Source: a virus. Taken from it: a stretch of DNA of 64,000 nt. The stretch is from IMG/VR virus record IMGVR_UViG_3300049324_000053; one strand, written 5' to 3'. A model generated the notes under the pieces. It was given only the letters and a program-made list of their open reading frames with translations. It made no database searches and was not told the origin of the DNA. Made by a program: the position numbers and the translations under genes. Positions 7,559 through 48,313 of the stretch are shown in pieces. How positions within the stretch are numbered: the first letter of the stretch is position 1; every line of letters starts with the position of its first letter.

Positions 7559-7732
7559 ATGGCATACGTGCAGGTGGATGACAAGCTGCTGCATCAGGTG
7601 GCCGAGGCGTTCGGCACGACCAGCGACCAGGAAGCCGTCGAGGGTGCGCTGTTGCATGTGCTGGCCTGGAACGAAGGCCAGCAGGAGGCGTTCGCGGCGT
7701 TCACGGCGTACCAGGCCCGCAATCAGCCGTGA
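7559..7732 (+). CDS. orphan VapB-like (RHH) antitoxin, 57 aa
   Basis: Hand translation MAYVQVDDKLLHQVAEAFGTTSDQEAVEGALLHV fits the VapB xxIDDxLLxxAxxxxGTxTxxxxVxxAL pattern; TACGCT -10; no PIN gene adjacent. Confidence 0.6.
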   Translation: MAYVQVDDKLLHQVAEAFGTTSDQEAVEGALLHVLAWNEGQQEAFAAFTAYQARNQP

Positions 7733-8106
7733 TCGCTCGGGCGGGCGCCGGTGCCGTCCCAGTACACCGCGTGGCCTTCGGTGACCAGGGTGTCCGACAG
7801 GTTCGTGCCGTCGGGCAGCACGACCTCGGCCATCCAAGCGCCAGTTCGGTCCGTTGGGGCGCCGTATTTATAGCCACGTAGTGTCGTGACGTTGACGGTG
7901 GCCGTGCCGAGCAGAGCCACGACCCGGTCGCGGGCGACTTTACCGGCCACCGACGACAGTGCGGGCGCGTTGATCCGGTTGACACGGACGCGCACCGGGA
8001 AGATGACCTTGCCTTCGAAGCCGATGTCCCGAATGACCTCGATGTCCAATGTGTCCCCATCGAGGACGCGCACTACCCGCGTGTTCGGCCACACCCAATC
8101 GGTCAT
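7723..8106 (-). CDS. thermonuclease (SNase) family nuclease
   Basis: VVRVLDGDTL, VRVNRINAP, YKYG, LVTEGHAVYWDG. Confidence 0.85.
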   Translation of the reverse strand: MTDWVWPNTRVVRVLDGDTLDIEVIRDIGFEGKVIFPVRVRVNRINAPALSSVAGKVARDRVVALLGTATVNVTTLRGYKYGAPTDRTGAWMAEVVLPDGTNLSDTLVTEGHAVYWDGTGARPSDHG

Positions 8107-26665: not shown

Positions 26666-27202
26666 GTGGGACGCGCCGACTTCGACAACGCCAAAAAGCT
26701 GTACCCCAGTGTCAACATGGGCGAAGCCGAATGGTTCGCCTATTTTCAGACCCCCGCCGGCGAACAAGCCATCGGCTACATCATGCGCGACATCTACGAC
26801 GAGGTGCTCGCCCTGGAAGAACGCGACACCGGCCGCGTGCCCATGGGCCGGCGCGCCGCCCGCCCCGCCGTGCCGCTGTCCACCGTGTACGCCAAAGTGT
26901 TCCCCCCCGCTTACAGCAACGAACCGTTCCCCGTGGCGCTGCGCACCCTGATGAACGGTCGTTCGATCCGCGCGTTCGCCGCGAAAGTTCCCATGGCGCA
27001 CGTCCCGCTGCACCGGCTGCTGGCCGGTGCCGACACCCCGGACCTGCGGCTCATGGAAGCCATCGCCGCCGCCGCCCGCGTCAAGCCAACCTACTTTTTG
27101 GAATACCGCGCCCAGTTCGTCGCCCTCATGGTGCAGCAAGCATTTCTCGCTCGCCCGCATCTGTCGATCCGTGCCATCCATGACCTGAAAGTGACCGCCT
27201 GA
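26666..27202 (+). CDS. XRE-like HTH protein
   Basis: LRTLMNGRSIRAFAAKV...LHRLLAG..TPDLRLMEAIA; coupled to TerL start. Confidence 0.65.
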   Translation: MGRADFDNAKKLYPSVNMGEAEWFAYFQTPAGEQAIGYIMRDIYDEVLALEERDTGRVPMGRRAARPAVPLSTVYAKVFPPAYSNEPFPVALRTLMNGRSIRAFAAKVPMAHVPLHRLLAGADTPDLRLMEAIAAAARVKPTYFLEYRAQFVALMVQQAFLARPHLSIRAIHDLKVTA

Positions 27203-29943
27203 TGACCGCCAAGGCGATCGTTGCGCCCAACGAAGAAGAGTCCTATCTGGTGGCGCTGCTCGACTCGATCGACGGCATCGACCTGGCCGAGGCATTCTGG
27301 TCGGACCCGTCCACCGCGACCGGCTGCTTTCGCGTCTGGGACTTTCAGTGGAAGTGGTTCACCTGCACCGACACTTTGCAGGCTGATCAATGCGGGCGTG
27401 GTGTCGGCAAATGTCTCGCCCCCGACACCCGCCTGACCCTCGCCGACGGTCGTCGTATTCGGGTTGCCGACCTTGCCGCCGCGACCGACCCCACCGCGAT
27501 CCTGGCCACCGTCGCCCGCGCCGACGACGCCGTGCACGGGTTCGAACTACGACCCGGCACTGTGTACGTTTCCGGACATAAGGCGTGCCTGCGGATCCGC
27601 ACCGTCAGTGGCCGGATCCTGACCGTCAGCACCGACCATCCGGTGTTCACGAGTACCGGCTGGCGCAAGGCCGGCGAACTGGCCGGCGACGACTCGCTCG
27701 CGATCGCCGCCTACCAGCCGGTGTTCGGCCGCAAGGTGCTGCCCCGCTATCTGGTGCGGCTGCTGGCACACGTTATCGCCACCGGCGGCGTCGGTGACCG
27801 ACCCCGCGACGTGTGGTACTCCTCGGCCGACGCCGGTACCGACACCAGCTACTACGACGACCTGGACGCCACCCTTGGCGCTGCCAAACTCGTCGCCCGG
27901 CCCGTCTCTCGCCGCGACCGCATGATCAAAATTGTGGGGGAACGGTGCGGCCCCGGCAACGGCATCGGCCCGTTCATGGCCCAGGCCGGCATGACCGGTG
28001 CCCGCGCCGGCACCATGCGCATCCCCGACCTGGTCTTCGCCCTGCCCGCCCGGCAGCTGGCCCTGTTCCTCGGCCGGCTACTGCAACCCCCCCACGGTGT
28101 TGCCGTGCGCGCCGGCACCGTGCGCTATCAGTGCGCCAACCCGGCGATGGCCGCCGACCTCGCGCATCTGCTCACCCGGTTCGGTGTCACCAGCCGGATC
28201 CGCAGCAAACTGCTGCCGTCCATGCGGGGCCGCACCCGCACCGACGCCCGCATCCAGGTCGTCACCATCGACGACCCTGCAAGTCTCGTGCGGTTCGCCG
28301 CCGTCGTCGGCCCCCACGTGCTCGGCGGCACCCGCACCGCCCTCGACGCCCTGGTCGCCGGCCTGGACCCGGCCGCGTTCACCGCGGCCGCTGCCCCGCC
28401 GGTCGTGGTGTTCGACTCGGTCGCCGACATCACCGACGCCGGCGAACAGGATGTCTATGACGTGACGATGTCCGGCGAACCACAGCTGTTCGCCGACGAC
28501 GTGCTCGTGCACAACTCCACGAAAATCATCATGCGCGGGTTCGCGCATCCTTTCCACGCCCCCGGCGAGCACATGTTCATCACCGCCCCCGAGCTGAACC
28601 ATCTGGGACCGCTGACCGACGGGCTGCAGAACCGGTTCGAAGGCACCCGTATCGGCGCCGAGATGATGACCAAAGGCCGTGGTGGGGGCATCACCAAGCA
28701 GCCGCACTGGCAGGCCCAGTTCCTCAACGGCGCGAAGATCATCACCCGGCTACCGAACCGGGACGGCCGCGGCGTCAAAAGCCAGCATGCCAGCAAACTG
28801 CACCTCGACGAGGCGCAGGACTATCCCGCCGCCGGCTGGAACGAAGTCCAGCCCACCTTCAAACGTGGCGTGCCCGGCGCGCAATGGCATGTGCATGGCG
28901 TTCCCCGCGGTGTGCGGGACAACTTCTACGCCATCACCAGCGACGAGTCCAAGTTCACCGTGCACCGGTATTTTGCCTGCCACCGCCCGGACTGGTCGGA
29001 CAACGAACGGGCCGAGGCCATCCGCAACTACGGTGGTTCGCCGCGGGATCCTGATTACAAGCGCAACATTTTCGGCGACCATGGTGATGCGACGAACCCG
29101 CTGTTTGTGTTGTCTCGGTTCATTGCCGTCTGCGACCTGGACCCTGGCAGTGACTACAACACCGCCGTCTACGCCGCCCGGTCCCTCAGCGACGAACTGC
29201 TCGCCGACCACGACCTCGACGCCCTGCTCGACCTGCCCGCCATCCACCGCATCGGCTATAGTCGCGCACCCCGCGGCTACAGCGCTTACTACGGCGGCAT
29301 GGACGTCGGCATGACGAATCACCCATCCGAGGTGTTGATCTTCGGCCAGCGCACCGGCACCGAGCTGATGGAGCTGCTGCTGCGCGTGCATATGGAGCGT
29401 GTCGACACCGAGCGTCAGGTGATGGTCGTGCAGCGGCTGTTCGACTTCTACGGCAGCAAGCTGATCGCGTTCGCCCTGGACAGGACCGGTATCGGTCACT
29501 CCGTGTGGGACCTGTTGGACAAGTCCTACGTCGGGGATCGGGTGTACGGGTACCACTTCAGTTCGAAGGTCCCGGTTGGTATCCGGGAAGCGGCCGAGGG
29601 CGAGGATCCGCACGACCTCGACGCGCTCATCGAGATGCGCGACCTGGTCGAACACGCCTCCGACGTGCTGCGCGTGGACTGGGTCGACGCCGGCCGGCTG
29701 CAGCTGCCCGCTGATGACGAGCTGCTCGGTGAATGGCAGGGGCAGACGTACAAGGTGGAGAAATCCGGCGGAAACCTCTACGGCAAAAGGGTGTATTCCA
29801 AGGGAAAGATGCACACCTTAGACGCAGGCAAGATGGCGGCCGCGGCAAAGACATTGCCGCCCATTCAGGATGCCATCGACCGGGCCCGTGCGGTGCACGA
29901 CGTCGACCCGGTGTTCGACGAGTTCCTCGGATCGTCCTGGTGA
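27202..29943 (+). CDS. terL: terminase large subunit (intein-containing)
   Basis: Walker A GRGVGK/S split by intein; Walker B LHLDEAQD; nuclease GGMDVG, ALDRTGIG, HTLDA. Confidence 0.85.
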   Translation: MTAKAIVAPNEEESYLVALLDSIDGIDLAEAFWSDPSTATGCFRVWDFQWKWFTCTDTLQADQCGRGVGKCLAPDTRLTLADGRRIRVADLAAATDPTAILATVARADDAVHGFELRPGTVYVSGHKACLRIRTVSGRILTVSTDHPVFTSTGWRKAGELAGDDSLAIAAYQPVFGRKVLPRYLVRLLAHVIATGGVGDRPRDVWYSSADAGTDTSYYDDLDATLGAAKLVARPVSRRDRMIKIVGERCGPGNGIGPFMAQAGMTGARAGTMRIPDLVFALPARQLALFLGRLLQPPHGVAVRAGTVRYQCANPAMAADLAHLLTRFGVTSRIRSKLLPSMRGRTRTDARIQVVTIDDPASLVRFAAVVGPHVLGGTRTALDALVAGLDPAAFTAAAAPPVVVFDSVADITDAGEQDVYDVTMSGEPQLFADDVLVHNSTKIIMRGFAHPFHAPGEHMFITAPELNHLGPLTDGLQNRFEGTRIGAEMMTKGRGGGITKQPHWQAQFLNGAKIITRLPNRDGRGVKSQHASKLHLDEAQDYPAAGWNEVQPTFKRGVPGAQWHVHGVPRGVRDNFYAITSDESKFTVHRYFACHRPDWSDNERAEAIRNYGGSPRDPDYKRNIFGDHGDATNPLFVLSRFIAVCDLDPGSDYNTAVYAARSLSDELLADHDLDALLDLPAIHRIGYSRAPRGYSAYYGGMDVGMTNHPSEVLIFGQRTGTELMELLLRVHMERVDTERQVMVVQRLFDFYGSKLIAFALDRTGIGHSVWDLLDKSYVGDRVYGYHFSSKVPVGIREAAEGEDPHDLDALIEMRDLVEHASDVLRVDWVDAGRLQLPADDELLGEWQGQTYKVEKSGGNLYGKRVYSKGKMHTLDAGKMAAAAKTLPPIQDAIDRARAVHDVDPVFDEFLGSSW
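27412..28515 (+). mobile_element. intein (368 aa) with degenerate LAGLIDADG-type endonuclease region
   Basis: Begins CLAPDTRLTLADG, block B STDHPVFT, ends VYDVTM...DVLVHN followed by Ser. Confidence 0.92.
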
Positions 29944-32825: not shown

Positions 32826-33668
32826 TCAGGGTGAAGCGGCCAGGATGCCACGTACCGCGTCGTACGTCGCCCGGTAGTTGGCACGGGGCCCGTTGCGATG
32901 CTTGGCCAGCGTGGTGCGCAGCTTGTCGTGTGGGCTGTCCGGATCCGGGTGCACGAACAGCACCAGGTCCGCGTCGTTCTCCAAGCTGCCGGACCCGGCC
33001 AGGTCGGTCAGCGCCGGCACATGCTGGTTCGCCCGTGACGCGGGCGCCTTGGCCGCGGTGCTGGTGACCAGGACTGCGGCGGGCAGCGCATGGGCGAGTG
33101 ACTTGAGCGTGACGGTGGCGTGGTCGACGACGTCGGCGGTGGTCGCTGTGGGCCTGGCGTCGTCGAGGAGATTGCCGATTCCGTCGACGACCAGCAGCCG
33201 CACACCGAAGTGATCGGCGGCCAGCTGTGCCTGGACGGCGATGACGTCGATGGTGCGTGCCGTGTCGTTGATCATTATTGGGGCGCGTATCAGCCGCTGG
33301 ATCTGGTGGTAGTCCGGGTTGCGCGGGTCGGGGCCGCATCCGATGGTGGTGAGCCTGGTGCTGATGTCGTGGGCGTGGTTGTCGCCGGCGGCGGCCGGCA
33401 CGGCGAACACGAGGGTGGGGACGGTGCGTTCCACGGCGGCGTGATGACACCAGGTCAGTAGCAGGTCCCGGGCCAGGTCGGGGTTGACGGCGGCGATGAC
33501 GGCCAGCTGGCCGGGGTGCAGGCCGCCGGCGAGCAGGTCGTCGAGGTAGGTGGCGCCGGTGGGGATCGACGGGGCGAACGTCTCGTGGCGGACGAAGGCC
33601 AGCACATCGCCGAGGCCGTCGCGCAGGGTGCCGACGATCGGTGTGTTGTCGGTCGTGGTGTCTGGCAT
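32826..33668 (-). CDS. highly degenerate DnaB-like C-terminal domain (no Walker A)
   Basis: IPTGATYLDDLLAGGLHPGQLAVIAAVNPDLAR; VVDG; LAGSGSLENDADLVLFVH; KHRNG. Confidence 0.85.
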   Translation of the reverse strand: MPDTTTDNTPIVGTLRDGLGDVLAFVRHETFAPSIPTGATYLDDLLAGGLHPGQLAVIAAVNPDLARDLLLTWCHHAAVERTVPTLVFAVPAAAGDNHAHDISTRLTTIGCGPDPRNPDYHQIQRLIRAPIMINDTARTIDVIAVQAQLAADHFGVRLLVVDGIGNLLDDARPTATTADVVDHATVTLKSLAHALPAAVLVTSTAAKAPASRANQHVPALTDLAGSGSLENDADLVLFVHPDPDSPHDKLRTTLAKHRNGPRANYRATYDAVRGILAASP

Positions 33669-33864
33669 CCGGGCCCCCGTTGTGCTATCAGCACTCATGC
33701 AAATGATCGTAAAGGTTGACGGCGACAACGCGGCGAAAAGCTGTGGAGTATTCCGCGATTCTGCACTTTTCGGGCTTCTACGAGTTGTGGGCGTCTGAGC
33801 GACGCAGCGAGGCGCAGAATCGGGCAGATTCGGCTTCCTGCGGACAGGCGCCGATGACAAACGT

Positions 33865-34245
33865 GTGCGTATCGACGTTCCCGCCACCGACGAGACGGGC
33901 CATATCGGTGGCCTGATCCCCGCCGCGGTCGTCGACGCCACCTGGGGGGCGCTCGGCAGCCGTCAACAGGTCGAGGACGAGATCGACCTGATGCTCACCA
34001 CGATCCGCGCGTTCTACGACCAGCCCGGCGATGTGGTGATGCGCCAGTGCGGCGCGCTGTCCGCACGCTGCACCGAACTGGCCATCGGGCTGGTGCGTCT
34101 CGAAGGGCGCCGGGAGTGGATTCATCTGCGCACCCGTCAGGTGGACCGGCTGCTCGCGGAGATTGAACGTCAATATCGCATCGCCAGCCGGCTGCTTGAA
34201 GGTCGCCGGCTGGATTGGGAGACGAGCCGGGAGAACAGCCGGTGA
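33865..34245 (+). CDS. conserved helical protein preceding portal
   Basis: Coiled coil; GTGA overlap with portal; late-type motif upstream. Confidence 0.65.
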   Translation: MRIDVPATDETGHIGGLIPAAVVDATWGALGSRQQVEDEIDLMLTTIRAFYDQPGDVVMRQCGALSARCTELAIGLVRLEGRREWIHLRTRQVDRLLAEIERQYRIASRLLEGRRLDWETSRENSR

Positions 34246-36044: not shown

Positions 36045-36308
36045 GTGGCTGACGCTGTGGCAGCGCTGTACCGGCAGGCCGCGCACTGGGAGCGCGCCTT
36101 CACCGCCGACGAACGGCGCAAGCATGCCAAGAGCGGGGCCGCGATGCCCGACGGATCGTTCCCCATCCTGAACCGCACCCATCTGCACGCTGCCCTGACC
36201 CTTTACGGGCATGCCAAGGATCCGGCGGCCGCCAAACGGCACATCATCAAGCGGGCGAAGGCGATCGGCGCGACCGGCATGCTGCCCGAAGGCTGGACCA
36301 GCTCGTGA
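36045..36308 (+). CDS. DUF6582-like head-associated small protein
   Basis: AMPDGSFPI...AAAKRHIIKRAKAIGA..LPEGW; GGAGG RBS. Confidence 0.7.
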   Translation: MADAVAALYRQAAHWERAFTADERRKHAKSGAAMPDGSFPILNRTHLHAALTLYGHAKDPAAAKRHIIKRAKAIGATGMLPEGWTSS

Positions 36309-38461
36309 ACGTCGAAGCCGCCTTGTACCGGGCAGCGGGCTGGACGCCGCACCGGTACGACCCGGCCACCGGTGGCCGTTGCCGTACGTGCGCGCAGCGC
36401 CGCTACACCGGTGAGCATGCTGCCGCCGAGAACGCGGCCGTCCGGCCCGCCGGGCAGCTTCCCGCACCTCCCGGGATGCGCACCCCCCTGCCGCCGGGAG
36501 CGCTCGCGAACCTGCCCGAAGGATTGCGTGGCACCCGTCATCCGTACGCGAAGCTGCCGTCGCCGGCGGCCTGGTCGTCCAAGGACTGCGCGATCTGCGG
36601 GCTGCCCGCCGGCGAACCCGTGCATCTGGATCCGGAAACCAGCAAACCGCTGACCTACGACATTTCGTCTGCGCCCGACGCGATGGCCACCGCCGACGCC
36701 GGCGACGACGACGAACCGGCCGGCGGCGACCCCGACGCCGGCGACGACTCCGCCCCGGCCAGCGCGATGATCGGTTTCTGGTTGCCCACCGCGCTGGCTC
36801 TGACGCTGTTGCCGCCCGGTATCGACGGCGCCGAAGAACCTGATGATCTGCATCTGACGATCGTGACGCTCGCCGGCCTGCCCGACGCCGGTGACGGTCC
36901 GGCGATGGCTACCGTGCTGGCGGCGGTGGCCATCGCCGCCGGACGTATCGCCCCGTTCACGGTCACCCTGTCCGGTGTCGGAGTTTTCACCGCCGGCGAA
37001 AAGCCGGTCACCTACTACTCGGTCGACTCTCCCGACCTGCCCGATGTGCGTGACGTTCTCGTCGACACGCTGACCGGTGCCGGTGTCCCGATCGACACCA
37101 CCCACGGGTTCACCCCGCACATCACACTCGTGTACGACGTCGCCGCGGTACCCGCCCCGCCGACCGACCCGATCCTTATCGACCGGCTCGCCTGCGCCAT
37201 CGGCGAGGACCGTTACGAGTTCCCTCTTGTCGGCAACCCCGACAGTGACAACGACGATGCCAGTGACAACGACGATGCCGGTGACGACGGTATGGCGGCC
37301 GTCATGGATCCGGCCGTCATGGACCCCGGTCCCGCCGGCTGGTCGCAGCCGTTCAACCGGCGGGACCGGGCCCACACTCAGCCCCGCGCCGAAGATGCCG
37401 GCGATGCGGGCCCCGACCGCGGCAGCGCCGGCAGCACCGCGGCGCACACCGAACGAGCGTTTGTCACCGAGGCCAATGGCAAGTTGCTTGTCACCGCCCC
37501 CAGCGATCAGATCCTCGCGCCGATGGCCCGCACCCTGGCCGCCGGCGCCACCGGCAACCAGCATTTCTCCTGGCTGACCGGCCGCCTCGTCGGCGCCGAC
37601 GAGCCCAACCGCAACGGTGCGTTATGGACGTTCGGGGATCTGCAGTTCGGCCAGCCCGGCGTCCGTCACGGACCGTTGAACTGGCTGCACGAGGGAAAAC
37701 ATGTGATCGGCACCCTGGCCGATTCCGTGCTCGTGCCTCACGAGCAGGCTGGCGACGTCGGCGCGCACATCGCCACCCTCGCCGCGGTGTGGTCATGGTT
37801 GTACCCGGCCGAAACCGAAGTGATTCGTTCCGCGTCCGACGCCGGCCGGCTGTGGCAGTCGATGGAATGCGTGTCCGAATCGGTCGAATGCGCCGGTGAC
37901 ACCGGCTGTGGACGCACCGTCGCCTACGGCGACTACCTGTCCGGCACCGGCACCTGTGCACATCTGCGCGAACGCAGTGCGGTGCGCCGGTTCGCACGCC
38001 CGTCGTTCCTCGGTGCCGCCGTCATCGTGCCGCCGGTACGTCCCGGCTGGGCCGGCGCCGACACCCGGGTGCTGTCCGCACTGTCGGCGGTGTCCGCGGA
38101 CAGCTATCAGGCTGCCGGCTGCCCCGACATGAGCGCATCCGAATGGGAACGGCTGATGGGTGAGGTGCTGACGTATGCCGGATCCGGCGCATCCCAGGTC
38201 ACGTCGACGGGCGGCAGCCCTGTCCCGGGTGGTGCGCAAGCTGCGAGCGGCGGCGCACCGGGCTCGCACCGCACCACCTCCGCCACCACCACCGGCGAAC
38301 TCGCCGCCGGCGCCGCCGGCGGTGTGAACGACCCGATGCGTGAACTGGCGTTGAGCCTCGCCGGGCTGACCAGCGTGCTGGCCGCCGAACGCAGCGCACC
38401 GCGGTTGCGCCGCATCGAACGTGACGACGTTGGCCGCATTACCGCTGTCATCGACGAATAG
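36305..38461 (+). CDS. 2H phosphoesterase domain fused to putative prohead (capsid maturation) protease
   Basis: DLHLTI (His183) and FTPHITL (His272) HxT pair; later PNRNG, LNWLH, WQSMEC, Cys/His zinc insert, FLGAAVI. Confidence 0.75.
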   Translation: MNVEAALYRAAGWTPHRYDPATGGRCRTCAQRRYTGEHAAAENAAVRPAGQLPAPPGMRTPLPPGALANLPEGLRGTRHPYAKLPSPAAWSSKDCAICGLPAGEPVHLDPETSKPLTYDISSAPDAMATADAGDDDEPAGGDPDAGDDSAPASAMIGFWLPTALALTLLPPGIDGAEEPDDLHLTIVTLAGLPDAGDGPAMATVLAAVAIAAGRIAPFTVTLSGVGVFTAGEKPVTYYSVDSPDLPDVRDVLVDTLTGAGVPIDTTHGFTPHITLVYDVAAVPAPPTDPILIDRLACAIGEDRYEFPLVGNPDSDNDDASDNDDAGDDGMAAVMDPAVMDPGPAGWSQPFNRRDRAHTQPRAEDAGDAGPDRGSAGSTAAHTERAFVTEANGKLLVTAPSDQILAPMARTLAAGATGNQHFSWLTGRLVGADEPNRNGALWTFGDLQFGQPGVRHGPLNWLHEGKHVIGTLADSVLVPHEQAGDVGAHIATLAAVWSWLYPAETEVIRSASDAGRLWQSMECVSESVECAGDTGCGRTVAYGDYLSGTGTCAHLRERSAVRRFARPSFLGAAVIVPPVRPGWAGADTRVLSALSAVSADSYQAAGCPDMSASEWERLMGEVLTYAGSGASQVTSTGGSPVPGGAQAASGGAPGSHRTTSATTTGELAAGAAGGVNDPMRELALSLAGLTSVLAAERSAPRLRRIERDDVGRITAVIDE

Positions 38462-38476: not shown

Positions 38477-38845
38477 ATGCCGTTTTCGGTGGCATCGCGC
38501 AACTACATGTTGGATCAGGAGGGCGGAAACAACTCCGTCTACATGAGCCTGCATTCGGGTGACCCGGGCAGCACCGGGGCGAACGAGCTGGCCACGACGG
38601 GTGGTTCGCCCAACTACGCCCGCAAGCCCATCACGTGGGCGGCAGCGTCGGGCGGCAGCAAGGTGTCCAACGTCTCCGAGGCGTTCGACATCCCCCCGTC
38701 GTCCACGGTGAGCTACTTCGGGCTGTGGTCGGCAGCTACCGGTGGATCGTTCCGCGGTGGGGGCCCGCTGTCGAGCACGGAGACGTTCGCCGCGCAGGGC
38801 ACCTACACCGTCACCAGCGGCAACGCGAACATGGCGCTCGCATAA
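38477..38845 (+). CDS. small beta-rich virion fibre subunit (Gp80-like), copy 1
   Basis: YMSLHSGDPG, YARKPITW, YFGLWSAATGGSF; paralog of 51873..52304. Confidence 0.75.
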   Translation: MPFSVASRNYMLDQEGGNNSVYMSLHSGDPGSTGANELATTGGSPNYARKPITWAAASGGSKVSNVSEAFDIPPSSTVSYFGLWSAATGGSFRGGGPLSSTETFAAQGTYTVTSGNANMALA

Positions 38846-38928
38846 AGCCGTAAAAAGCTTATAAAGCTAACGTCGAGCTGCGCCGTCCGGGCCTACGCCG
38901 CGGCGGTGCAGCGGTGTCGAACCGCGAG

Positions 38929-39480
38929 CTATTGCGCCATGTTCTCGGGGTCCTCGGCGTCACCGTCGTAGATCACAATCCCCATGATCTCGACATTGTC
39001 GCTGAACTCGGGGAGCTTGACGTGGATCGGGTCTTCCGCGGAGTCCTCGCCCGATATCGCACTCCACGTGATCACTTTGCGAGCGTAGGGGCCGGACGCG
39101 GTCGTGTTGGCGTCCAGGACAGCGACGATCTGTTCGACGTCGGTCAGTTGACCGCTGGCGACCTGGACCATGAACGTTGTGGCTTGTGCGCTGGTGAATG
39201 TCAGCGGGTACCCGTTCTTCTCGCAGAACACGGCGAGCGCGATGAATGCGCAGCGTTTGTTGCCGTCGACCAGTGCGTGATTGCAGGCCAGTGACTGTAC
39301 GAGCGCGGCGGCCTTGTGCAGCGTTGTCGGATAGGCGTCGGCGCCGAACACGGTGACCGCAGGCCGGTGCAGCGCCGAGGCCAGCAGTCCCGGGTCGCGG
39401 ATCGTTGCCGGTTGCCCGAGAGCGATCACCGCAAGATCGAGGAAGCCGGTGAGCGTCAGGTAGCGGGTGGCGCCGGTCAA
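38929..39480 (-). CDS. doc: Doc/Fic family toxin with acidic C-terminal extension
   Basis: IRDPGLLASALHRP, KAAAL, NHALVDGNKR Fic motif. Confidence 0.9.
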   Translation of the reverse strand: MTGATRYLTLTGFLDLAVIALGQPATIRDPGLLASALHRPAVTVFGADAYPTTLHKAAALVQSLACNHALVDGNKRCAFIALAVFCEKNGYPLTFTSAQATTFMVQVASGQLTDVEQIVAVLDANTTASGPYARKVITWSAISGEDSAEDPIHVKLPEFSDNVEIMGIVIYDGDAEDPENMAQ

Positions 39481-39680
39481 AGGTCTGCTAGTGCATCAAA
39501 GGTGGCGGCGTACCGGGTCCGGATCTCGGAACCGATGACGCTCCAGCTGCGTTCACGTCGGTCGAGGTACTCGGTGACGGCGGTGTCGAGCAGTTTTTGC
39601 AGTGAGCAGCCGTCGCTGGCTGCCGCTTGCTGCAGGGCGGCGAGCCGTTCGTCGTCCAGTCGGTAGTTGATCGCGCTCAT
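39477..39680 (-). CDS. RHH antitoxin of Doc
   Basis: MSAINYRLDDERLAALQQAAASDGCSLQKLL...RYAATFDALA; overlaps doc start. Confidence 0.8.
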   Translation of the reverse strand: MSAINYRLDDERLAALQQAAASDGCSLQKLLDTAVTEYLDRRERSWSVIGSEIRTRYAATFDALADL

Positions 39681-39683
39681 ACT

Positions 39684-39896
39684 TCATAGTACCACGATGG
39701 TACCGTCCGTGGTAGGCTCAGGGTGGAGAGTGACATTCGCTCCGGCGACGCCCGTCAGGGCGACCGCGACCAGCTGCAGGACGTGGCGCCTGATGTCGTC
39801 GCGGATGGCAGCGTCGCCGTCGAGGTCGTAGGCCGAGGCCCAGGCGTCACGGTCCACGTCGATCGCCACGGTGACGTCGACGCGCAGCCTGGTCAC
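39684..39896 (-). CDS. hypothetical protein
   Basis: Coupled within the doc operon. Confidence 0.55.
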   Translation of the reverse strand: MTRLRVDVTVAIDVDRDAWASAYDLDGDAAIRDDIRRHVLQLVAVALTGVAGANVTLHPEPTTDGTIVVL

Positions 39897-40195
39897 GACA
39901 GCAACGCGCCGGTGTCGTCGACGACGTCCAGACCTCGGCTGGCCGCGTTCGTGAGCGGATGCTGCGCGCCCAGGATTTCGCTGTCCGCTCCGGTGGTCAC
40001 GTTCACCGTCAACGCCAGTGGTTGCTCGGTGCGTGTACTCCAGCCGAGCACCTCGATGCCGACCACATCGTTGGCGTCGTTCAGCAGCAGCCGCACACTC
40101 TTGCCGCCGAAAGTCCCTACGACGCTTCGTCCCGGCGCCCGCGGCGCCCAGCTGATGAGAACCGCGTCGGCGGCTTGATCAATGTCGATGTTCAT
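39893..40195 (-). CDS. orphan DUF2283-like antitoxin
   Basis: IDIDQAADAVLI...LLLNDANDVVGIEVL matches DUF2283 YDxEADxxYI...DxxGxxxGIEI. Confidence 0.65.
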   Translation of the reverse strand: MNIDIDQAADAVLISWAPRAPGRSVVGTFGGKSVRLLLNDANDVVGIEVLGWSTRTEQPLALTVNVTTGADSEILGAQHPLTNAASRGLDVVDDTGALLS

Positions 40196-40243
40196 GTCGG
40201 CCATCCTTGCCGATCCGGGCTCCGATGGCACACCCTTACCGGC

Positions 40244-41089
40244 ATGGAACCCGAGCCCGACGAGCTGACCCTGGACCTGAAGGTGGCTGTAGCCATCGCC
40301 CACGCCCGAGCCCATCCCGAACAGATGCGCCCGTACGTGCCTCGCAGTGCACAGCCGGACAACAGCGACGCCCGCATGAAGGTGCTCGACGACATCAACG
40401 CTCTGCTCGACGCGCAGGAATCTCCCATCGTCAGCGGCCCGGTGGCGCTGCCGGTCTCTTTGCGTAATGCTGCGGTGATCGCTGTCGCCAGGCTCGGGGC
40501 GGCGCCGTCGGTGACCGCGCTGATCACCGACGCGTTGCGCCGTACGCTCGAAGAAGCCGTCAGCCGGGCCGCTCTCGACAGCCACTACGCACAGCACCCG
40601 CATGCGCGCCCCTCGCTCGGTGAGGTGGCGTTGGCTTACGCAGAGCAGACGGGGTCACCGCTCGCGCAGCGGCCTGAGCTGCTGGATGCAGCAGCTCAGC
40701 AGATTGTGTCCGTGCATCCTGACGCCGACGGCCGTGACGTGCTGATGTGGGCGCAGGGGTGGTTGTCCGCCCAAGAGGAGTCGGCGCAACTGTTTGTGCC
40801 ACAGACTGCGGCACAAGTGCAGGCGCACAAGCGCGCCGAACTGGACCGCTACCTGGACTGGCTGGAAAAGGAGCAGGGACTGCCGACCCCCGAGCAGCTG
40901 GCGGCAGCGGACCGCTGGGTCAACGGCCTGCTCACCGCGATCCGCTCGGCGGACCGGGCCGTGGTGGACGACATGAGCCAGCGCCGGTGGCGGGCGCGGG
41001 CGAGGCGTGAGGCGCGCGAGATGGCTCAGGATCCGGCTGATCGCGGCGAGGTGGCTGCCACGATGCGTTTTCTTGACGGCGACGAGTAG
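40244..41089 (+). CDS. chimeric protein made of several antitoxin-like segments
   Basis: See findings; RAELDRYLDWLEKEQGLPTPEQLAAADRWVNGLL resembles the C-terminus of the 13544..13810 antitoxin. Confidence 0.6.
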   Translation: MEPEPDELTLDLKVAVAIAHARAHPEQMRPYVPRSAQPDNSDARMKVLDDINALLDAQESPIVSGPVALPVSLRNAAVIAVARLGAAPSVTALITDALRRTLEEAVSRAALDSHYAQHPHARPSLGEVALAYAEQTGSPLAQRPELLDAAAQQIVSVHPDADGRDVLMWAQGWLSAQEESAQLFVPQTAAQVQAHKRAELDRYLDWLEKEQGLPTPEQLAAADRWVNGLLTAIRSADRAVVDDMSQRRWRARARREAREMAQDPADRGEVAATMRFLDGDE

Positions 41090-41156
41090 CTCGACCAGCG
41101 GGTAGTGCGCGGCCGCCGGCTGCGATCAGCAAGATCAGGGGCCGATGGTCTCCTTC

Positions 41157-43226
41157 GTGGCTGAAGGAACTGTCCGGCTTCCCCTGGACTCGACGGGAAA
41201 ATATCTGCGCACCCAGACTGTGACGGTCGGTGCGCAATCCGAGGAACAGCAGGTGGTGACCCTTGGTGACGCTGCGGGTCATGTTGCGGCGTTGTCCGCC
41301 GCCGGCGGCCAGTACACCCAGCTGACGAGTGCGTCCACCATCGGTCAGGTCGCGCAGGTCAACCCGTACGGCGCTTTGAAGATTCAGCCGCCGCCCCAGT
41401 TGTGGTTCTCGGACACGTTCAACAATCTTGACACCGTCAACCGATGGGTGACCGGTGGCACTATTGCGCCGATCGCGGCGAACGGTGCGGTGTTCTCTCC
41501 TGGAACCACGGCGAACGCGTCGTCGACGTTGTCGAGCATTCCGCAGTTCACCACGGGCACCGCGTACGTGTCGGTCGTCACCCCGGTCGCGCTGGAGACG
41601 GTGGCGGTGACCGGGGCGCACCGCTGGTTCGGTCTGGGCACGGCGCCGGCGAGCCCGAGTGCGACCAACCCCGTTCAGGACGGTCTGGGCTGGGAGGTGG
41701 ACACCGCCGGGGCGTTGCGGGCGAGCATGTATCAGAACGGTGGGCGGGTCTGGACGTCGATCTTGACGTATCCGTCGGACGGGCAGCCGCATTTGTACCA
41801 AATGGAGTGGTCGGCGTCGGGGGTGCTGTACTACGTCGACGGCACCGAAGTGCCGGTGATCTGGGCGCCGCCGGCGATGACCGGGGTGTCGATGCTGCCG
41901 ATCCGTACGGCGCAGTACAACGGTGCGACCACGTTGTCGGCGCCGACAACGTTCATGCTGCGTGCGGCGGGCATTTCCGACAGCATGGGCCCCACCACGA
42001 TGATCGCCGATGCGACGTATCCGTGGCGGCGGACCTCGGTCAGTGCGAACGGGGTGCTGTCGGCGGGGATGCCGGATGCCACCAGCAGTGGGTCGATCCT
42101 CATGACGACGACCGGTGGGGCGGTCACCGCGACCAGCAGCGGCGTCGGGGTGGTCGGGGTGCAGGTTGCGGGCACCTGGACCGGGACGATCGCGCTGGAA
42201 GCCACTACCGACGGCGTCAACTGGTTCGGCGTCAACGGTGTGCAATCGGGTACCGGTGCGATCGCCGGGGTGATCACCGGCAACGGACAGTGGCGGGTCA
42301 ATTCCGCCGGTTACGCGCAGGTGCGGATCCGGTCGTCGATCGCGGGGACCGGCAGTGCGACCGCGACGCTGATCGCTGCTGCACCCGCCTCTGTGATTAC
42401 TGCTGCGGAGCCGGTGCAGGTTCGTGGTTACGCGATCGCCACGAACACCAGCACGATGACGACGACCGGCACCTATGGGCCTGTTGATGTCAGCGCCGCC
42501 GGCAATGTCACCATCACCGCCTCGGGTGGGTTCGCCGGCACCATCGCCGGTGTCATCGAGCAGACCAACGACGGCAGCACCTGGTATCCGGCCGGTGGGG
42601 TGCGGTCGGACACGGGGCTGGCCGAGTCGACCTGGACGCTGGCCGCCGGCAGCGTGCGCATGTGGGACCTGGGCTGTGAAGGCATCACCGCGGTGCGCAT
42701 CCGGCTGACGACCGCACCGACCTCCAGCTCGGTGGTGTTCCGGGCCAATGCCGGCGGCATGTCGTTCTCCCCGTCGGTGGCGGCCACCCTGCAGGATCCG
42801 CCGCGGGTGGGCCTGACCTGGTACACGACCGGGTTCGCGGTGCCGACCGCGGAGGCGATGGCCACGGTGACCGGATTGCAGCGTCTCGGATCGGCTGTGG
42901 TGACCACTGCGCTGACCGTCAGCGCCGGTAAGACGTTGCGGGTGCAGGCGATCTCCGGGTCGATCACGCTGGTCGGCACGACCGCAGTGCAGACCCGCAT
43001 CACGCTGCGTGCCGCGGCGGGAGCTGCGGCGGCGGCGACCAGCCAGGTGTACTGGACGGTGCGCAAAGGCGCCAGCGCTCTCACGGCGGGCACCGTGTAC
43101 GACTTCGACACGTCGTTCGCCGGCGGGCTGGAGTTCCCCGCCGGCTACGGCATCGGGTTCTCGGCGCTGGCCGGAACTGCCTTGATGCACAGCCTGGACC
43201 TGTCCATGGTCGGTTACGAGTACTGA
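41157..43226 (+). CDS. virion fibre/receptor-binding protein with ConA/lectin-like beta domains
   Basis: All-beta Thr/Gly-rich; DGQPHLYQMEWSASGVLYYVDG; start moved to GTG 41157 (MAEGTVRLPLDSTGK). Confidence 0.65.
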   Translation: MAEGTVRLPLDSTGKYLRTQTVTVGAQSEEQQVVTLGDAAGHVAALSAAGGQYTQLTSASTIGQVAQVNPYGALKIQPPPQLWFSDTFNNLDTVNRWVTGGTIAPIAANGAVFSPGTTANASSTLSSIPQFTTGTAYVSVVTPVALETVAVTGAHRWFGLGTAPASPSATNPVQDGLGWEVDTAGALRASMYQNGGRVWTSILTYPSDGQPHLYQMEWSASGVLYYVDGTEVPVIWAPPAMTGVSMLPIRTAQYNGATTLSAPTTFMLRAAGISDSMGPTTMIADATYPWRRTSVSANGVLSAGMPDATSSGSILMTTTGGAVTATSSGVGVVGVQVAGTWTGTIALEATTDGVNWFGVNGVQSGTGAIAGVITGNGQWRVNSAGYAQVRIRSSIAGTGSATATLIAAAPASVITAAEPVQVRGYAIATNTSTMTTTGTYGPVDVSAAGNVTITASGGFAGTIAGVIEQTNDGSTWYPAGGVRSDTGLAESTWTLAAGSVRMWDLGCEGITAVRIRLTTAPTSSSVVFRANAGGMSFSPSVAATLQDPPRVGLTWYTTGFAVPTAEAMATVTGLQRLGSAVVTTALTVSAGKTLRVQAISGSITLVGTTAVQTRITLRAAAGAAAAATSQVYWTVRKGASALTAGTVYDFDTSFAGGLEFPAGYGIGFSALAGTALMHSLDLSMVGYEY

Positions 43227-43263
43227 TCATCCCGGTCGGAACCACTTTGGACGGGGGTGATCG

Positions 43264-45981
43264 GTGACCGCCGCAATCGTCGCGTTCTGGGCGAACCGCT
43301 GGACCCGTGTCGTGACCAACGGCACCGTCGGCCTGTCCACCACCGGCACCCTGGCCGCACAAGGCATCCGTGCCGAAGCCGGCGCCGTCTCGGTCACCGC
43401 CAACGGCACCCTCGGCGCCACCGGCCGTAAAACCGCACACGCCATCACCATCGCCACCGCGACCGCCACCGGCACCCTGACCGCACCCGGCGGCCGTAAA
43501 ACCGCACGCGGCGGCGGCACCGTCGCGTCCAGCTCCCCGATCAGCGCCGCCGGCCGTAAAACGATCACCGCTACGGTGTCGCTGCCCGCCGCCGGTGCCC
43601 TGACCGCGACCGGCCGCAAACAGGCCACCGCGACCGCCGGCGCCCTGACCGCGACCGCCGCTGCCGCCGTCACCGGCGGCGTCAAACAAACTCCGGCCCG
43701 GCCCATCACCATCACCGCCACCGGCACTTTGACCGTCACCGGCGGCCGCAAGACGATCACCGCCGCGATCACCTTGGCCGCGGCCGGCGCGCTCGCCGCG
43801 ATCGGCTCCAGCATCAAACGCGGCTTCACCAACGCCACCGGCACCCTGACCGCGGCCGCCGGCCGCAAAACCGGCCTCGGCGCCGGCACCTTGACCGCCA
43901 CCGCCACCACCGCCGTCGCCGGTGTGCACACCGCCACCGGCAGCGCCACGCCGCTGACCGCGACCGCCGGGACCGTCGTCGCCGGCCGCAAACAGGTTGC
44001 CACCGCCACCGCCGCCGGCGCTCTGACCGCCACCGTGAGCGCGGCCAGCATCGGCGTCGGACACCATGCCGGCGTCACCAGCCTCACCGGTGTCAGCATC
44101 CTCGGCGCGGCCGGTGCCAGCAGCCGCACCGGCACCGGACTGCTCGCCGGCGCCGGCACCGCCGCTGCTGCTGGCCGCAAAACGGCTACCGGCACCGGCG
44201 CTGTCATCCCGACCGGTGCCACCAGCAGCACCGCTCTGACCGTGGCCGGCACCAAAACAGGACGCTCAACGACCGTTCTGGCCGCCACCAGTGTTCTGAC
44301 CGCGACCGGTATGCACGCCACCACCACCGGCACCGTCCTGCTGACCGGTGTCACCAGCGTCACCGTTGCCGGCGCCTCCATCAAAGCCGGATACGTCAAC
44401 AGCAACAGCACCTTTGCCGTCGCCGGTCACCGCACCACCACCGGCACCGCCACCCTGACCGGCGCCACCCCCACCCTGACCGTGGCAGGTAACAAAACCG
44501 CTTCCGCCTGGGGCATCCTCGCGCCCGCCACCGGCACCCTGGCCGCGACCGGCACCCACACCGCGTTCGGCACCGTCACCACCACTGCTACTGACGTCCT
44601 GGCCGCGACCGGCACCCACACCGCGTTCGGCACCGTCACCACCACCGCCACCGGCGCCCTGGCCGCCACCGGCGCCAAGCAGCTGCCCACCATCAGCCCC
44701 GCCACCGTCACCGCCATCGACACTCTGACCGTCACCGGCGACAAGCATCTCGCCGCCGCGATCACCTTGACCGCGACCGGTGTCCTGACCGGCGACGGCG
44801 CCGGCACCCATGCCGCCCGCCTGCCCGCCACCGGCACCCTGGCCGCGACCGGCATCCGCGGCGCCGTCGGCACCGCCACCCTCACCGGCCCGACCGGCGA
44901 CCTCACCGCCGTCGGCACCGCCACCCGCACCGGCACCGTCCGCCTCGACGCCCTCACCAACCCCGTCAGCGCCGACAACGGCATCAAACGTGCCCGCGGC
45001 TTCGGCGGCATCAACGCTCTCGGACGCCTCGCCGGCACCGTTCAGCACGCCAGCCTCGGCACCGCCACCGGCCTCGGCCAGCTGTCCGCCGACGGCATCA
45101 AACACACCGGAACCGACGCCACCGGTGAACTCACCGACCTCGTCGACGCCCAAAGCTTCGGCTACAAAACCATCGACGGCGCCGGAACCGTACTGTCCAC
45201 CAGCGACCTGACCGCCATCGGCGAAGTGTCCGCCCACCGGTACATCATCGGCACCACCTTCCCCGTCGCCGCCGGCGCCGGCATCCAGATCCGCGGCCGC
45301 AAAACCGCCTTCGGCGCCGGCAGCATCACCGCCGCCGGCATCCTCGTCGTCCGCGCCGACCCCCCCGGCGCCGTCACCGCTTTCGGCACCCCCGCCGTCA
45401 CCCACGGCACCAAAAACATCAGCACCCAGAACATCTCCTTGCGCACCGAATCCACCCTGGCCGCATACGGCGCCAAAACCCTGCCCGGCACCGCCACCGT
45501 GACCGCCACCGCCACCATGACCGCGTCCGGCAGCGTCGGGCTCACCGGCACCGGCGCCGGCGCCTGCGCCGCCACCGGCATGCTCACCGCCATCGGCACC
45601 CCCGGCCCCGCCGCCGCCGCACCCGTCATCCCCATCCCCGTGTCCACCACCGGCGGCGGCACCGGCGGTGGAGGAGGGCTCACCTGGCCCGGCCGCCGCC
45701 CCCCCTTGCAGCTACGCCGCCACCTGTACTCGGGCGCCGTCACCGTCACCGGCGAAGGAACCCTCACCGCCACCGGCGCACCCGCCCCTCACGCCGCCGG
45801 CCAGGCGAGCCTGACCGCCGTCGGCATCCTGACCGCCACCGGAACCGCCACCAGCGCACGCACGCTCGAACCCGCCCGCACCGACAGCCCACCCACCATT
45901 CCCGCCGTCCCCGCCGACATCCTCGACGCGCTGCGCGCCGCCGTCGCCGACACCGAACTGTGGCTCGCGCTCGGCCCCTGA
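43264..45981 (+). CDS. Ala/Thr/Gly-rich ~20-aa repeat virion protein, copy 1
   Basis: Recurrent GRKT...ATGTLTATG units; near-exact 60-nt tandem duplication at ~44539/44599. Confidence 0.75.
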   Translation: MTAAIVAFWANRWTRVVTNGTVGLSTTGTLAAQGIRAEAGAVSVTANGTLGATGRKTAHAITIATATATGTLTAPGGRKTARGGGTVASSSPISAAGRKTITATVSLPAAGALTATGRKQATATAGALTATAAAAVTGGVKQTPARPITITATGTLTVTGGRKTITAAITLAAAGALAAIGSSIKRGFTNATGTLTAAAGRKTGLGAGTLTATATTAVAGVHTATGSATPLTATAGTVVAGRKQVATATAAGALTATVSAASIGVGHHAGVTSLTGVSILGAAGASSRTGTGLLAGAGTAAAAGRKTATGTGAVIPTGATSSTALTVAGTKTGRSTTVLAATSVLTATGMHATTTGTVLLTGVTSVTVAGASIKAGYVNSNSTFAVAGHRTTTGTATLTGATPTLTVAGNKTASAWGILAPATGTLAATGTHTAFGTVTTTATDVLAATGTHTAFGTVTTTATGALAATGAKQLPTISPATVTAIDTLTVTGDKHLAAAITLTATGVLTGDGAGTHAARLPATGTLAATGIRGAVGTATLTGPTGDLTAVGTATRTGTVRLDALTNPVSADNGIKRARGFGGINALGRLAGTVQHASLGTATGLGQLSADGIKHTGTDATGELTDLVDAQSFGYKTIDGAGTVLSTSDLTAIGEVSAHRYIIGTTFPVAAGAGIQIRGRKTAFGAGSITAAGILVVRADPPGAVTAFGTPAVTHGTKNISTQNISLRTESTLAAYGAKTLPGTATVTATATMTASGSVGLTGTGAGACAATGMLTAIGTPGPAAAAPVIPIPVSTTGGGTGGGGGLTWPGRRPPLQLRRHLYSGAVTVTGEGTLTATGAPAPHAAGQASLTAVGILTATGTATSARTLEPARTDSPPTIPAVPADILDALRAAVADTELWLALGP

Positions 45982-46104
45982 CCACCCGTACCGCCACCGA
46001 TAAGCAATCGGTGTATTTGATTACCCGCCTGCCAAGGCCGACCTCAACAGTGATGCAGGGCGACCGGATGTCCCGCATGCACCACCCCCGGCAGGAGGGA
46101 ACGC

Positions 46105-46764
46105 ATGACCGACGGGCCGATGCTTACCGAGAAGCAGTATATGGAGTTGCTCGCGGCCAGGTTGGAGCGGGAAACCGCCGGGCTGCAGGCCGAAAAAGCG
46201 GAACTGGCCGCCGCGCGCGACGAACTCACCGAACACGTCGCCACCCTCAACGCCGAGAAAGCTGAACTCACCGGCCGCATCGACGTGCTGGAAGCGGCCA
46301 AGTCCGCCGCCGAAACAGCCCGCGACGAAGCCGCCGCACAGTTCGAGGCGTACAAGGCGCATCAGGCCGAGATCGCCGCGATCGCCGCCCGTAAGACCGA
46401 ACGGGTCGACCGGGTACGCGCCGCCGCACCACACCTGACCGAAGACTTCACCAGCAATCCCGAACGCCAGCAGCGCTGGGCCGAGATGGCTGAAGAAACC
46501 TTCGCCGAGCATGTCAACGACCTTGTCGAAGCTGCCGTCGCCGCATTCAGCGCCGACGAACGCCGGCAGGTCGCCGAGGCCGACGACAAGGCGACCGTCA
46601 TCGCCAGCATCCTCGCCTCCCGTCAGACCGCCTCCGAAACCCGTTCGACCCGGCAGACCGCCGCCTTCAGCGCCGGAGTGTCCCCGAACGCGAAGACCGA
46701 GACGACCAGTGCCACGCGCCGGCTGATGGTGGCCGGCGGTCATCTTCCCGCCAAGGCCATCTGA
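46105..46764 (+). CDS. capsid scaffolding protein
   Basis: Long acidic coiled coil just upstream of decoration/capsid genes; GGAGG RBS. Confidence 0.75.
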   Translation: MTDGPMLTEKQYMELLAARLERETAGLQAEKAELAAARDELTEHVATLNAEKAELTGRIDVLEAAKSAAETARDEAAAQFEAYKAHQAEIAAIAARKTERVDRVRAAAPHLTEDFTSNPERQQRWAEMAEETFAEHVNDLVEAAVAAFSADERRQVAEADDKATVIASILASRQTASETRSTRQTAAFSAGVSPNAKTETTSATRRLMVAGGHLPAKAI

Positions 46765-47323: not shown

Positions 47324-48313
47324 ATGACGATGCCTGCGACCAAGACCAAGGATCTGATCACCGCGGCCCGCGGTACGATGTCCCCCTGGAATCGTGACCA
47401 CCGTATCGACATGAGTGAGCATCAGGCACTCATCGACCAGGTGAACACTGAAGCGCTGGAGAACTGGGACGACGACAACTGGCACCGCCAGATCGCCGCG
47501 GACATCTCCTCGGCCGTGGACTATCAGTTCACGTTCGAGAATGTGTTCCAGGACTACTTCCGGGTGCAGACCGTCGGCGAGTTCGACCGGGTCCGTATTC
47601 GTGAGCGCCGCGGCCTGAAGGTGTTCTACACCTCTCGCGGTGGATATATCGAGGAATCCCAGATCCGTACCGAGGACTGGGCGCTGCCGCGTGACACGCT
47701 CGGTTTCCATGTCAGCGAGCACACTGACAAGCTGCGGGCGAACTTCGCGATCGCGATGAACGACATCGTCACGCTCGGCATGGAGCGCCTCGAAGCCGAG
47801 GTCAACCGGCGTATCTTCTCCCTGCTGCAGCAGGCGGTTCCGTCCGGTAGTCCGAACTATGTGGCGACCAACGGTCTGACGAAGCTGGAGCTGAACGCGG
47901 CGATCCGCGAGGTCAAGGACGCGATCAAGCCCAACGGGCTCGGTCCCGTTCCGGTGACCATCATCGGGCGCGCCAGCATGATCGACCAGATCAGCGACTT
48001 CGATCTCGGGTTCGACCCCGAGGCCACCGCTGAAGTGCGTGCTCGTGGCCGGCTCGGCGTGTACCGCGGCGCCACCGTCCAGCAGGTGATCAACTACGCG
48101 GACGAGGACGGGTTGAGCTACATCCCGGCCAACGAGCTGTGGGTGTTCGGCGGCGACGTCGGGCGATTCGCGATGTATGGCGGCCTTCAGACGAAGACAT
48201 GGGACGAAATGTCCGTAGATTTCCGCCACTATAGGGCTCGTAAGGATGTGGGTGGACTTGTCCATCACCCCGAGCAGGCCAGGCGCGTCGTTGACAGCTC
48301 TGTGGCTGGCTAA
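47324..48313 (+). CDS. major capsid protein (HK97-like)
   Basis: 329 aa, position, GRLGVYRGATV segment, optimised codons. Confidence 0.8.
   Translation: MTMPATKTKDLITAARGTMSPWNRDHRIDMSEHQALIDQVNTEALENWDDDNWHRQIAADISSAVDYQFTFENVFQDYFRVQTVGEFDRVRIRERRGLKVFYTSRGGYIEESQIRTEDWALPRDTLGFHVSEHTDKLRANFAIAMNDIVTLGMERLEAEVNRRIFSLLQQAVPSGSPNYVATNGLTKLELNAAIREVKDAIKPNGLGPVPVTIIGRASMIDQISDFDLGFDPEATAEVRARGRLGVYRGATVQQVINYADEDGLSYIPANELWVFGGDVGRFAMYGGLQTKTWDEMSVDFRHYRARKDVGGLVHHPEQARRVVDSSVAG

Follow-up and report, generated by a model that had tools for sequence, protein, structure and literature searches.

A LigT-like 2H phosphoesterase fused to a prohead protease of an uncultured phage, a candidate capsid-loaded enzyme

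The window analysed here is a stretch of 64,000 nucleotides from the IMG/VR virus record IMGVR_UViG_3300049324_000053 (a single record of 130,739 bases, CheckV completeness 92%) of an uncultured, large high-GC phage, with a G+C content of 61-74% across the window. Within this window, one uninterrupted frame of 718 codons encodes what our searches and models identify as an intact, LigT-like 2H phosphoesterase domain followed by a prohead protease domain with the fold of T4 gp21 and the herpesvirus assemblins. This fusion had been put forward from the letters and open reading frames of the stretch alone (hereafter the sequence-only reading), and both of its domains are supported by the analysis presented here. 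We propose that the 2H domain is enzyme cargo, loaded into the capsid on the phage's own maturation protease and acting on defence-related nucleotides or RNA ends, a reading that we hold to be probable, if by a modest measure.

Two enzyme domains in one reading frame

The fusion gene starts with a GTG codon that overlaps the stop of a preceding 87-codon gene (GTGA), and its domains follow each other in the order given in Table 1. Internal ATG codons from which a free protease could start are present at 37292, 37304 and 37319, and no convincing ribosome-binding site was seen for them. The closest database protein, P0002 (690 residues, 62% identity), has the same layout as the window fusion from end to end, and both main domains are also common to 13 further proteins. 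Among 50,697 phage records, tblastn of the whole protein returned one weak match, confined to the protease part (phage GX15bay, 31%), the 2H domain searched alone returned no match, and megablast of 15 kb found no relative.

The 2H domain is recognised by two Pfam models above their cut-offs, PF13563 (E 9.5e-11, 42.4-45.8 bits, cut-off 27) and PF02834 (E 1e-5, 26.1 bits, cut-off 23.3), and its PHROG matches are families named 'RNA ligase'. The sequence-only reading had placed two HxT motifs at 36851 (HLT) and 37118 (HIT), and these positions are exact: H183-L-T185 occupies 36851-36859 and H272-I-T274 occupies 37118-37126, with a spacing that is right for the 2H superfamily. Neither motif varies among 15 full-length homologues or among 24 2H sequences; across 67 further relatives, the two histidines and the first threonine do not change, and the second threonine is kept in at least 90%. 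Judged by these catalytic-type residues, the domain is apparently active. An AlphaFold model built on the alignment reaches a mean predicted local distance difference test (pLDDT) score of 91.6, and the best solved matches found by Foldseek are 5h7e (drCPDase, a cyclic phosphodiesterase (CPDase); E 6e-10) and 5ldm (Escherichia coli LigT; E 4e-9). In the VIA search, RNA 2',3'-cyclic phosphodiesterases and LigT score highest (Z 16.7, 16.5 and about 15), the alignment to 5h7e covering 160 residues (Z 16.7, root-mean-square deviation (rmsd) 3.7) in two pseudo-symmetric lobes. The viral 2H enzymes that degrade signals score lower (rotavirus VP3 13.7, mouse hepatitis virus ns2 12.4, the phosphodiesterase of phage BCSR5 10.3, Acb1 10.2 and the penguinpox cGAMP phosphodiesterase 9.1).

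The comparison with Acb1 and LigT drawn by the sequence-only reading, for which it had suggested Foldseek, therefore holds for LigT (Z 15-16.7) and is weaker than implied for Acb1, whose structure 7t26 stands at rank 40, below LigT, AKAP18, Usb1 and rotavirus VP3. With the Acb1 Pfam model PF23474, whose cut-off is 27, the region scores 10.6 bits, and the alignment covers only model positions 101-117, over the second HxT motif; in the general Pfam search the model does not appear at E<=1. We rejected membership in the Acb1 family on this score and on the nearer, LigT-type structures. By sequence and model, the domain is thus classed as LigT-like and not as an Acb1 family member, a placement that is compatible with cleavage of the cyclic oligonucleotides of the cyclic-oligonucleotide-based antiphage signalling system (CBASS). 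With the LigT and CPDase enzymes (E. coli LigT 5ldm, Deinococcus CPDase 5h7e and Thermus TT0787 1iuh), which are its best fold and sequence match, the domain shares the two HxT motifs and a similar size; however, these are free-standing cellular enzymes, whereas the 2H domain of the window, at 18-22% identity to them, is part of a virion assembly protein. Acb1 (T4 gene 57B; Erwinia phage FBB1, PDB 7t26/7t27) is likewise a phage enzyme of the same fold class and destroys cyclic oligonucleotide alarm signals, but it is a free early protein and not a domain of a head protein.

The ranking of the folds invites an alternative in which the domain is an RNA-end enzyme, either a LigT-type 2',3'-cyclic phosphodiesterase or a Usb1-like RNase, that heals tRNA or mRNA ends cut by host toxin RNases or trims host RNA, whether it is packaged or not. 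RNA phosphodiesterases and LigT do lie closer to it than VP3 or Acb1, and an RNase role is also offered in the text of Iyer et al. (2017, J Bacteriol, PMC5512222). However, the rank of a fold does not show its substrate, the Tad3 and Tad6 fusions described below point to signalling defences, and neither RtcB nor an RNA_ligase-family gene, which would be needed to finish the repair, was found in the genome; we regard the RNA-end alternative as quite unlikely. The lack of these genes matches the statement in the text of Iyer et al. (PMC5512222) that phage 2H versions never pair with ligases, for which an RNase or signal-degrading role was concluded.

Residues 393-626 have no match in Pfam or PHROGs, and the protease family to which they belong is so far without a name in either. 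The protease-like domain that the sequence-only reading saw here is nevertheless recovered by structure. The best Foldseek match of the alignment-based model (pLDDT 66.8, moderate) is T4 gp21 (5jbl, probability 0.99), with herpesvirus assemblins next, and the VIA search, which is independent of Foldseek, likewise ranks 5jbl_A first (Z 9.7, rmsd 3.6, 138 of 165 residues aligned), followed by the varicella-zoster protease 1vzv (Z 6.2) and by unrelated folds at about 5. His462 (37688-37690) and Ser519 (37859-37861) are invariant in the family. The motifs 'GPLNWLHE' and 'SMEC' resemble the regions around H85 and S140 of gp21, which are its active-site residues (Hobbs and Kranzusch, bioRxiv 10.64898/2026.03.04.709575), and from this resemblance we infer that His462 and Ser519 are their equivalents. 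In hhalign, the family motif near 'ADEPNRNG' pairs with gp21 residues 38-67 ('AEVVNRNK') in a weak local match of 30 residues (E 0.0045, probability 7.7%); against single S78 and Mu-like protease sequences, hhalign found nothing. With gp21 and the assemblins, the window protease has in common the fold (Z 9.7 and 6.2), a conserved, putatively equivalent His and Ser, a gene position after the portal and, close to the N-terminus, a G-x-x-V/M-x-A-[DE]-x-x-NRN motif, but at 12% identity the sequence similarity is not significant. It further differs from these proteins in a helical C-terminal subdomain, in a long N-terminal extension that carries His/Cys motifs and the 2H domain, and in a cluster of Cys522, Cys529, Cys535, Cys551 and His553 (37868-37963), which is invariant in the family and has no obvious counterpart in gp21; this cluster is a possible structural metal site.

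Phage GX15bay (L001, MK557849.1) carries a coding sequence (CDS; 5884-7866) annotated 'portal protein' that aligns with residues 421-633 of the window protease at 31% identity, and upstream of it lies a CDS of 940 residues annotated 'PhoH'. The 'portal protein' label may be wrong, or the CDS may itself be a fusion.

The segments around the two domains are of a different character. The acidic tandem-repeat linkers described on both sides of the 2H domain by the sequence-only reading are present. An acidic stretch occupies the place of the first linker in most homologues. The second begins with an acidic repeat at 37243-37289 (Tandem Repeats Finder, period 18 nt, 2.6 copies, 93% matches, DSDNDDASDNDDAGDD), followed by a duplicated AVMDP (AAVMDPAVMDP) readable at 37295-37327, and this fast-evolving stretch has a different length and a different sequence in each homologue, P0002 with its 62% identity included. 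The His/Cys motif of the N-terminal region (H-x-[FY]...C-x-x-C-G...H), present twice in the window protein, recurs in 1-4 copies in the N-terminal extensions of relatives that have no 2H domain, and it may be a small metal-binding module. Repeats of the form H-G-F-x-W-P...C-x-x-C-G...N-D-x-x-H precede the protease at L009, L012, L013, L018, L025, L027, L028 and L032.

Partners, distribution and proposed packaging of the 2H domain

With the 2H domain as query, phmmer found 2,323 matches at E<=0.001 among 1.84 billion cluster representatives, of which 619 reach E<=1e-10. The 143 new best matches have a median length of 630 residues; 105 are at least 400 residues long and 17 are shorter than 260. 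Pfam was run on 67 of them, of 260-1,700 residues and taken in rank order, as a census of partners. Prohead proteases are the commonest recognised partner (15 of 67: Peptidase_S78_2 (XkdF) in 12, Peptidase_S78 in 2 and Mu-like_Pro in 1), and the protease family of the window accounts for 11 more of the 143. Other head proteins are Phage_portal (5 of 67), Portal_Mu (3), the P23-45 portal barrel (2), MuF (2) and a phage capsid protein (1), and the remaining partners include the Thoeris inhibitors Tad3 (3) and Tad6 (1) as well as NUDIX, ADP-ribosyltransferase, Zeta toxin and ATLF (one each). At the level of sequence, the census shows the 2H clade to be mainly a fusion domain, found mostly in head-assembly proteins. 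Per-protein scans place the 2H domain in front, with the protease ending the chain, in the S78_2, Mu-like and window families, and after the portal in the portal fusions; among proteins with mapped domains, the exceptions to this order are P0023, in which the S78 protease comes first, and L047.

According to a 2026 review (PMC13728456), Tad3 and Tad6 bind ThsB, and their fusions to the 2H clade point towards signalling defences. In P0031 (502 residues), a 2H domain is joined to Tad3, a published inhibitor of type I Thoeris, and to DUF7701. The 2H model also matches predicted structures of proteins from cultured actinobacteriophages. Among these matches are long proteins of the Gordonia phages MelBins, Tardus and GMA2 and of the Microbacterium phage OneinaGillian, which bear the annotations 'RNA ligase', 'putative structural protein' or 'capsid morphogenesis protein'. 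A MuF-protease fusion is described for cluster EG, which includes OneinaGillian, in a report whose text, as far as it bears on this fusion, does not discuss the 2H part (PMC7302621).

The prominence of proteases in the census bears on a second alternative, that of a trigger-linked antidote: the 2H domain would be made simultaneously and in equal amount with the protease and destroy the CBASS signal in the cytoplasm late in infection, its packaging being incidental. In T4, gp21 activity suffices to activate the cGAS/DncV-like nucleotidyltransferases (CD-NTases) late in infection, gp21 switching these CBASS cyclases on by cutting an activation loop, an effect that is masked by Acb1 and Acb2 (Hobbs and Kranzusch 2026, bioRxiv 10.64898/2026.03.04.709575), and mutations that escape type I CBASS map to the prohead protease (Richmond-Buccola et al.). 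The gp21 fold of the window protease and the rank of prohead proteases as the commonest recognised 2H partner fit this alternative. A signal that diffuses, however, could be met as well from an adjacent gene as from a fusion, and the portal, MuF and capsid fusions of the same 2H clade are left unexplained; moreover, the 2H domain falls outside the Acb1 family. We also found no Acb2-type gene (PF13876, which we take to be the Acb2 family) in this genome and five 2H-bearing relatives, a weak negative with a control that was itself weak or silent. On balance, an antidote whose packaging is incidental seems unlikely to us, and we are similarly doubtful of the related proposal that four protease families acquired the same 2H clade independently because the prohead protease is the event sensed by the CBASS cyclases.

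IMG/VR, scanned with the protease alignment, yielded 51 loci, and a maximum-likelihood tree was computed for 53 protease domains. A 2H domain is present in the protease gene at 6 of the 51 loci, in five of them in front of the protease and at L047 behind it. One clade of the tree holds 17 2H-bearing rows out of 19, the other two (L015 and L038) being losses, whereas L047 (9821-11518; protease at residues 54-275, 2H at 400-553) sits on a distant branch and is, by its domain order and position in the tree, an independent fusion in the opposite order. The protease domains of the clade have diverged to 44-53% identity with that of the window (P0002, at 70%, excepted), so the fusion is an old one that has persisted. 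This retention bears on the view that the 2H domain lacks an enzymatic role and serves as a spacer in structure or assembly, or that it is the decaying remnant of a fusion. Such a view could draw on L015 and L038, which lost the 2H domain and kept the protease, yet it sits poorly with 2H retention across proteases so far diverged, with the conservation of the catalytic His pair and threonines in the 67 further relatives described above, and with a 2H model that folds at pLDDT 92; we consider it highly improbable. N-terminal extensions in the family vary from 11 to 572 residues, and in 17 non-2H proteins that were scanned no Pfam domain was found, their extensions (11 to about 400 residues) carrying His/Cys motifs instead.

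A prohead protease joins the prohead as it assembles, cleaves scaffold and capsid proteins and finally degrades itself as well. The premise of the sequence-only reading, that a maturation protease is enclosed in the prohead, stands as established knowledge of such enzymes. In the capsid-cargo model that we prefer, building the protease into the prohead would bring in the 2H domain as cargo; the acidic and variable linkers would then be cut by the protease, which digests itself, and the 2H domain would be freed; being compact, it would be retained inside the head with the DNA and be ejected into the next host. In that host, but also before assembly in the cytoplasm of late infection, its role would be to hydrolyse nucleotides related to defence, with cyclic oligonucleotide or 2'-5'-linked signals and the 2',3'-cyclic phosphate ends left by host RNases as candidate substrates. 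That the domain is released at the linkers, stays in the head once the DNA is packaged and reaches the next cell is purely our inference. Targeting of the 2H domain to the head, by contrast, is favoured by the comparative evidence at sequence level, because the clade has repeatedly and independently been joined to head-interior proteins, namely four protease families, portals, MuF and capsid. The topology is consistent with such targeting, the domain being N-terminal to proteases and C-terminal to portals with the two exceptions named above (P0023 and L047). The HK97 protease is reportedly directed to the prohead by its C-terminal tail, and targeting of this type would explain why the cargo stands in front of the proteases.

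Several points weigh against the capsid-cargo model. As a rule, prohead proteases are broken down and the fragments exit the head; the 2H domain, a folded unit of 17 kDa, would have to stay behind and be ejected. The mapping of His462 and Ser519 to gp21 consists of motif resemblance plus one weak hhalign match, and the protease model is of moderate quality (pLDDT 67), with low confidence at its most conserved motif. Finally, the idea that the protease family has a general slot for swappable enzyme cargo is not supported, as the 2H-less extensions contain no recognisable enzyme.

Head-module neighbourhood of the fusion gene

The genes around the fusion were compared by tblastn of the window neighbours against the 51 loci. 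The conserved order comprises the large terminase (39 loci), a 126-residue gene (38), the 588-residue gene at 34215 (47) and the protease, followed by a 219-residue gene with a coiled-coil signal (22), a 178-residue gene (42) and the 329-residue capsid candidate (48). Because the fusion lies in this conserved order of terminase, portal, protease, scaffold-like gene and capsid, which is shared by about 47 related viral contigs, it is, together with its modelled fold, assigned as the phage's own maturation protease.

Table 1 Coordinates of the fusion gene, its parts and the neighbouring head-module genes in the window.
Feature	Position	Strand	Basis or remark
2H phosphoesterase-prohead protease fusion, whole gene	36305..38461	+	718 codons open, one reading frame
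N-terminal region, two H-x-[FY]...C-x-x-C...H motifs (residues 16-38, 79-107)	36350..36625	+	1-4 copies of the motif in relatives lacking 2H
Acidic tandem-repeat linker before the 2H domain	36685..36764	+	Tandem Repeats Finder, period 39 x2 / 18 x3.2
Predicted LigT-like 2H phosphoesterase domain, residues 149-319	36749..37261	+	Pfam, model, fold searches
Variable low-complexity linker between 2H domain and protease	37243..37480	+	repeats, alignment
Predicted prohead protease domain, residues 393-626, T4 gp21/assemblin fold	37481..38182	+	model, fold searches, invariant residues
C-terminal extension, residues 627-718	38183..38461	+	Gly/Ala/Ser/Thr-rich stretch and conserved tail; shared with P0002 only
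Large terminase, 913 residues, apparently intein-interrupted	27202..29943	+	Pfam, alignment of relatives
Probable portal gene, 588 residues	34215..35981	+	synteny and language-model features
Small DUF6582-like gene, with translational coupling to the fusion	36045..36308	+	language-model features 0.93
Small head protein, first gene of the 7.6-kb insertion	38477..38845	+	phrog_240, PF23140
Scaffold-like gene, coiled-coil signal	46105..46764	+	directly after the protease in 22 relatives
Major capsid protein candidate	47324..48313	+	phrog_2522 E 8e-5; 48 related loci, 38-76% identity

The sequence-only reading had put the fusion in a slot between portal and scaffold. This slot is conserved in the relatives, in which scaffold-like and capsid genes follow directly after the protease; in the window, however, the gene immediately downstream (38477-38845) encodes the phrog_240/PF23140 head protein and not a scaffold, and the scaffold-like (46105) and capsid (47324) genes lie 7.6 kb further on. 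They are split from the protease by an insertion (38477-46000) that the relatives do not have. Besides the head protein, this insertion contains a Fic/Doc gene (38929-39480, minus strand), antitoxin-like genes and two large open reading frames (ORFs) without assignment, 41145-43226 and 43264-45981, the latter in a stretch with 73.5% G+C and a GC skew of -0.29. We rejected 39959-41089 as the capsid gene in favour of 47324-48313, which is identified by phrog_2522 and synteny; the latter has no sequence match in the PDB.

On the upstream side, the portal assignment comes from synteny and language-model features only. In the tabulated loci, the candidate precedes the protease gene, and all of its best language-model feature matches are portal families (score 0.96-0.97); by sequence, it has no match in Pfam, PHROG or PDB. 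The DUF6582-like gene between it and the fusion has no Pfam match; homologues occur in 16 related loci, in several of them between portal and protease, and its motif MPDGS[FY]PI...DL.NA is also found inside the protease N-terminus of L027, L032 and P0004. Its profile matches the crAss001 cargo protein gp45 (7qog_M) at E 0.35, which is chance level. Further upstream, the terminase appears to be split by an intein: residues 128-438 match Pfam Intein_splicing and LAGLIDADG_3 below cut-off, and for most relatives the alignment does not start until about residue 436. Between terminase and portal lies a DnaB_C-like helicase ORF on the minus strand (32826-33941, E 1.3e-21).

Relation to known head-packaged proteins and implications

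The T4 internal proteins and Alt are loaded into the head, trimmed by the protease and injected with the DNA to act against host functions. The logic that we propose for the 2H domain is alike, leading from the prohead core through trimming to ejection; in T4, however, short capsid-targeting peptides stand on separate proteins, whereas in the window cargo and protease would form one covalent chain. Alt is also cited as a head-packaged protein in the text of Iyer et al. (PMC5512222). That text describes 2H domains in polyvalent proteins, where they are fused to MuF or portal domains and a counter-signalling role is predicted for them, and it notes polyvalent proteins that end in an assemblin-like peptidase. 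By comparison with this text (its figures set aside), the polyvalent proteins and the window protein have in common a 2H domain without an RNA-ligase partner, a partner from the head interior and a C-terminal assemblin-like peptidase. They differ in that the 2H partners given in the text are MuF and portal, whereas the window protein is a simple combination of two enzymes, with the maturation protease itself as partner.

The idea of a packaged 2H enzyme directed against host defences is thus not new, since Iyer et al. (2017, PMC5512222) predicted it, in the text, for the 2H-MuF and 2H-portal proteins. The window fusion is a well-supported further example of this polyvalent, head-associated kind of 2H protein and not a new system, and the overall interpretation given by the sequence-only reading is partly supported.

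Should the 2H domain indeed travel in the head and be delivered, the phage would bring a ready enzyme against nucleotide-based immunity or RNase toxins into the cell before any phage gene is expressed. The census makes this nine-year-old prediction easy to test in cultured actinobacteriophages, and it links the prediction of Iyer et al. to the recently found activation of CBASS by prohead proteases.

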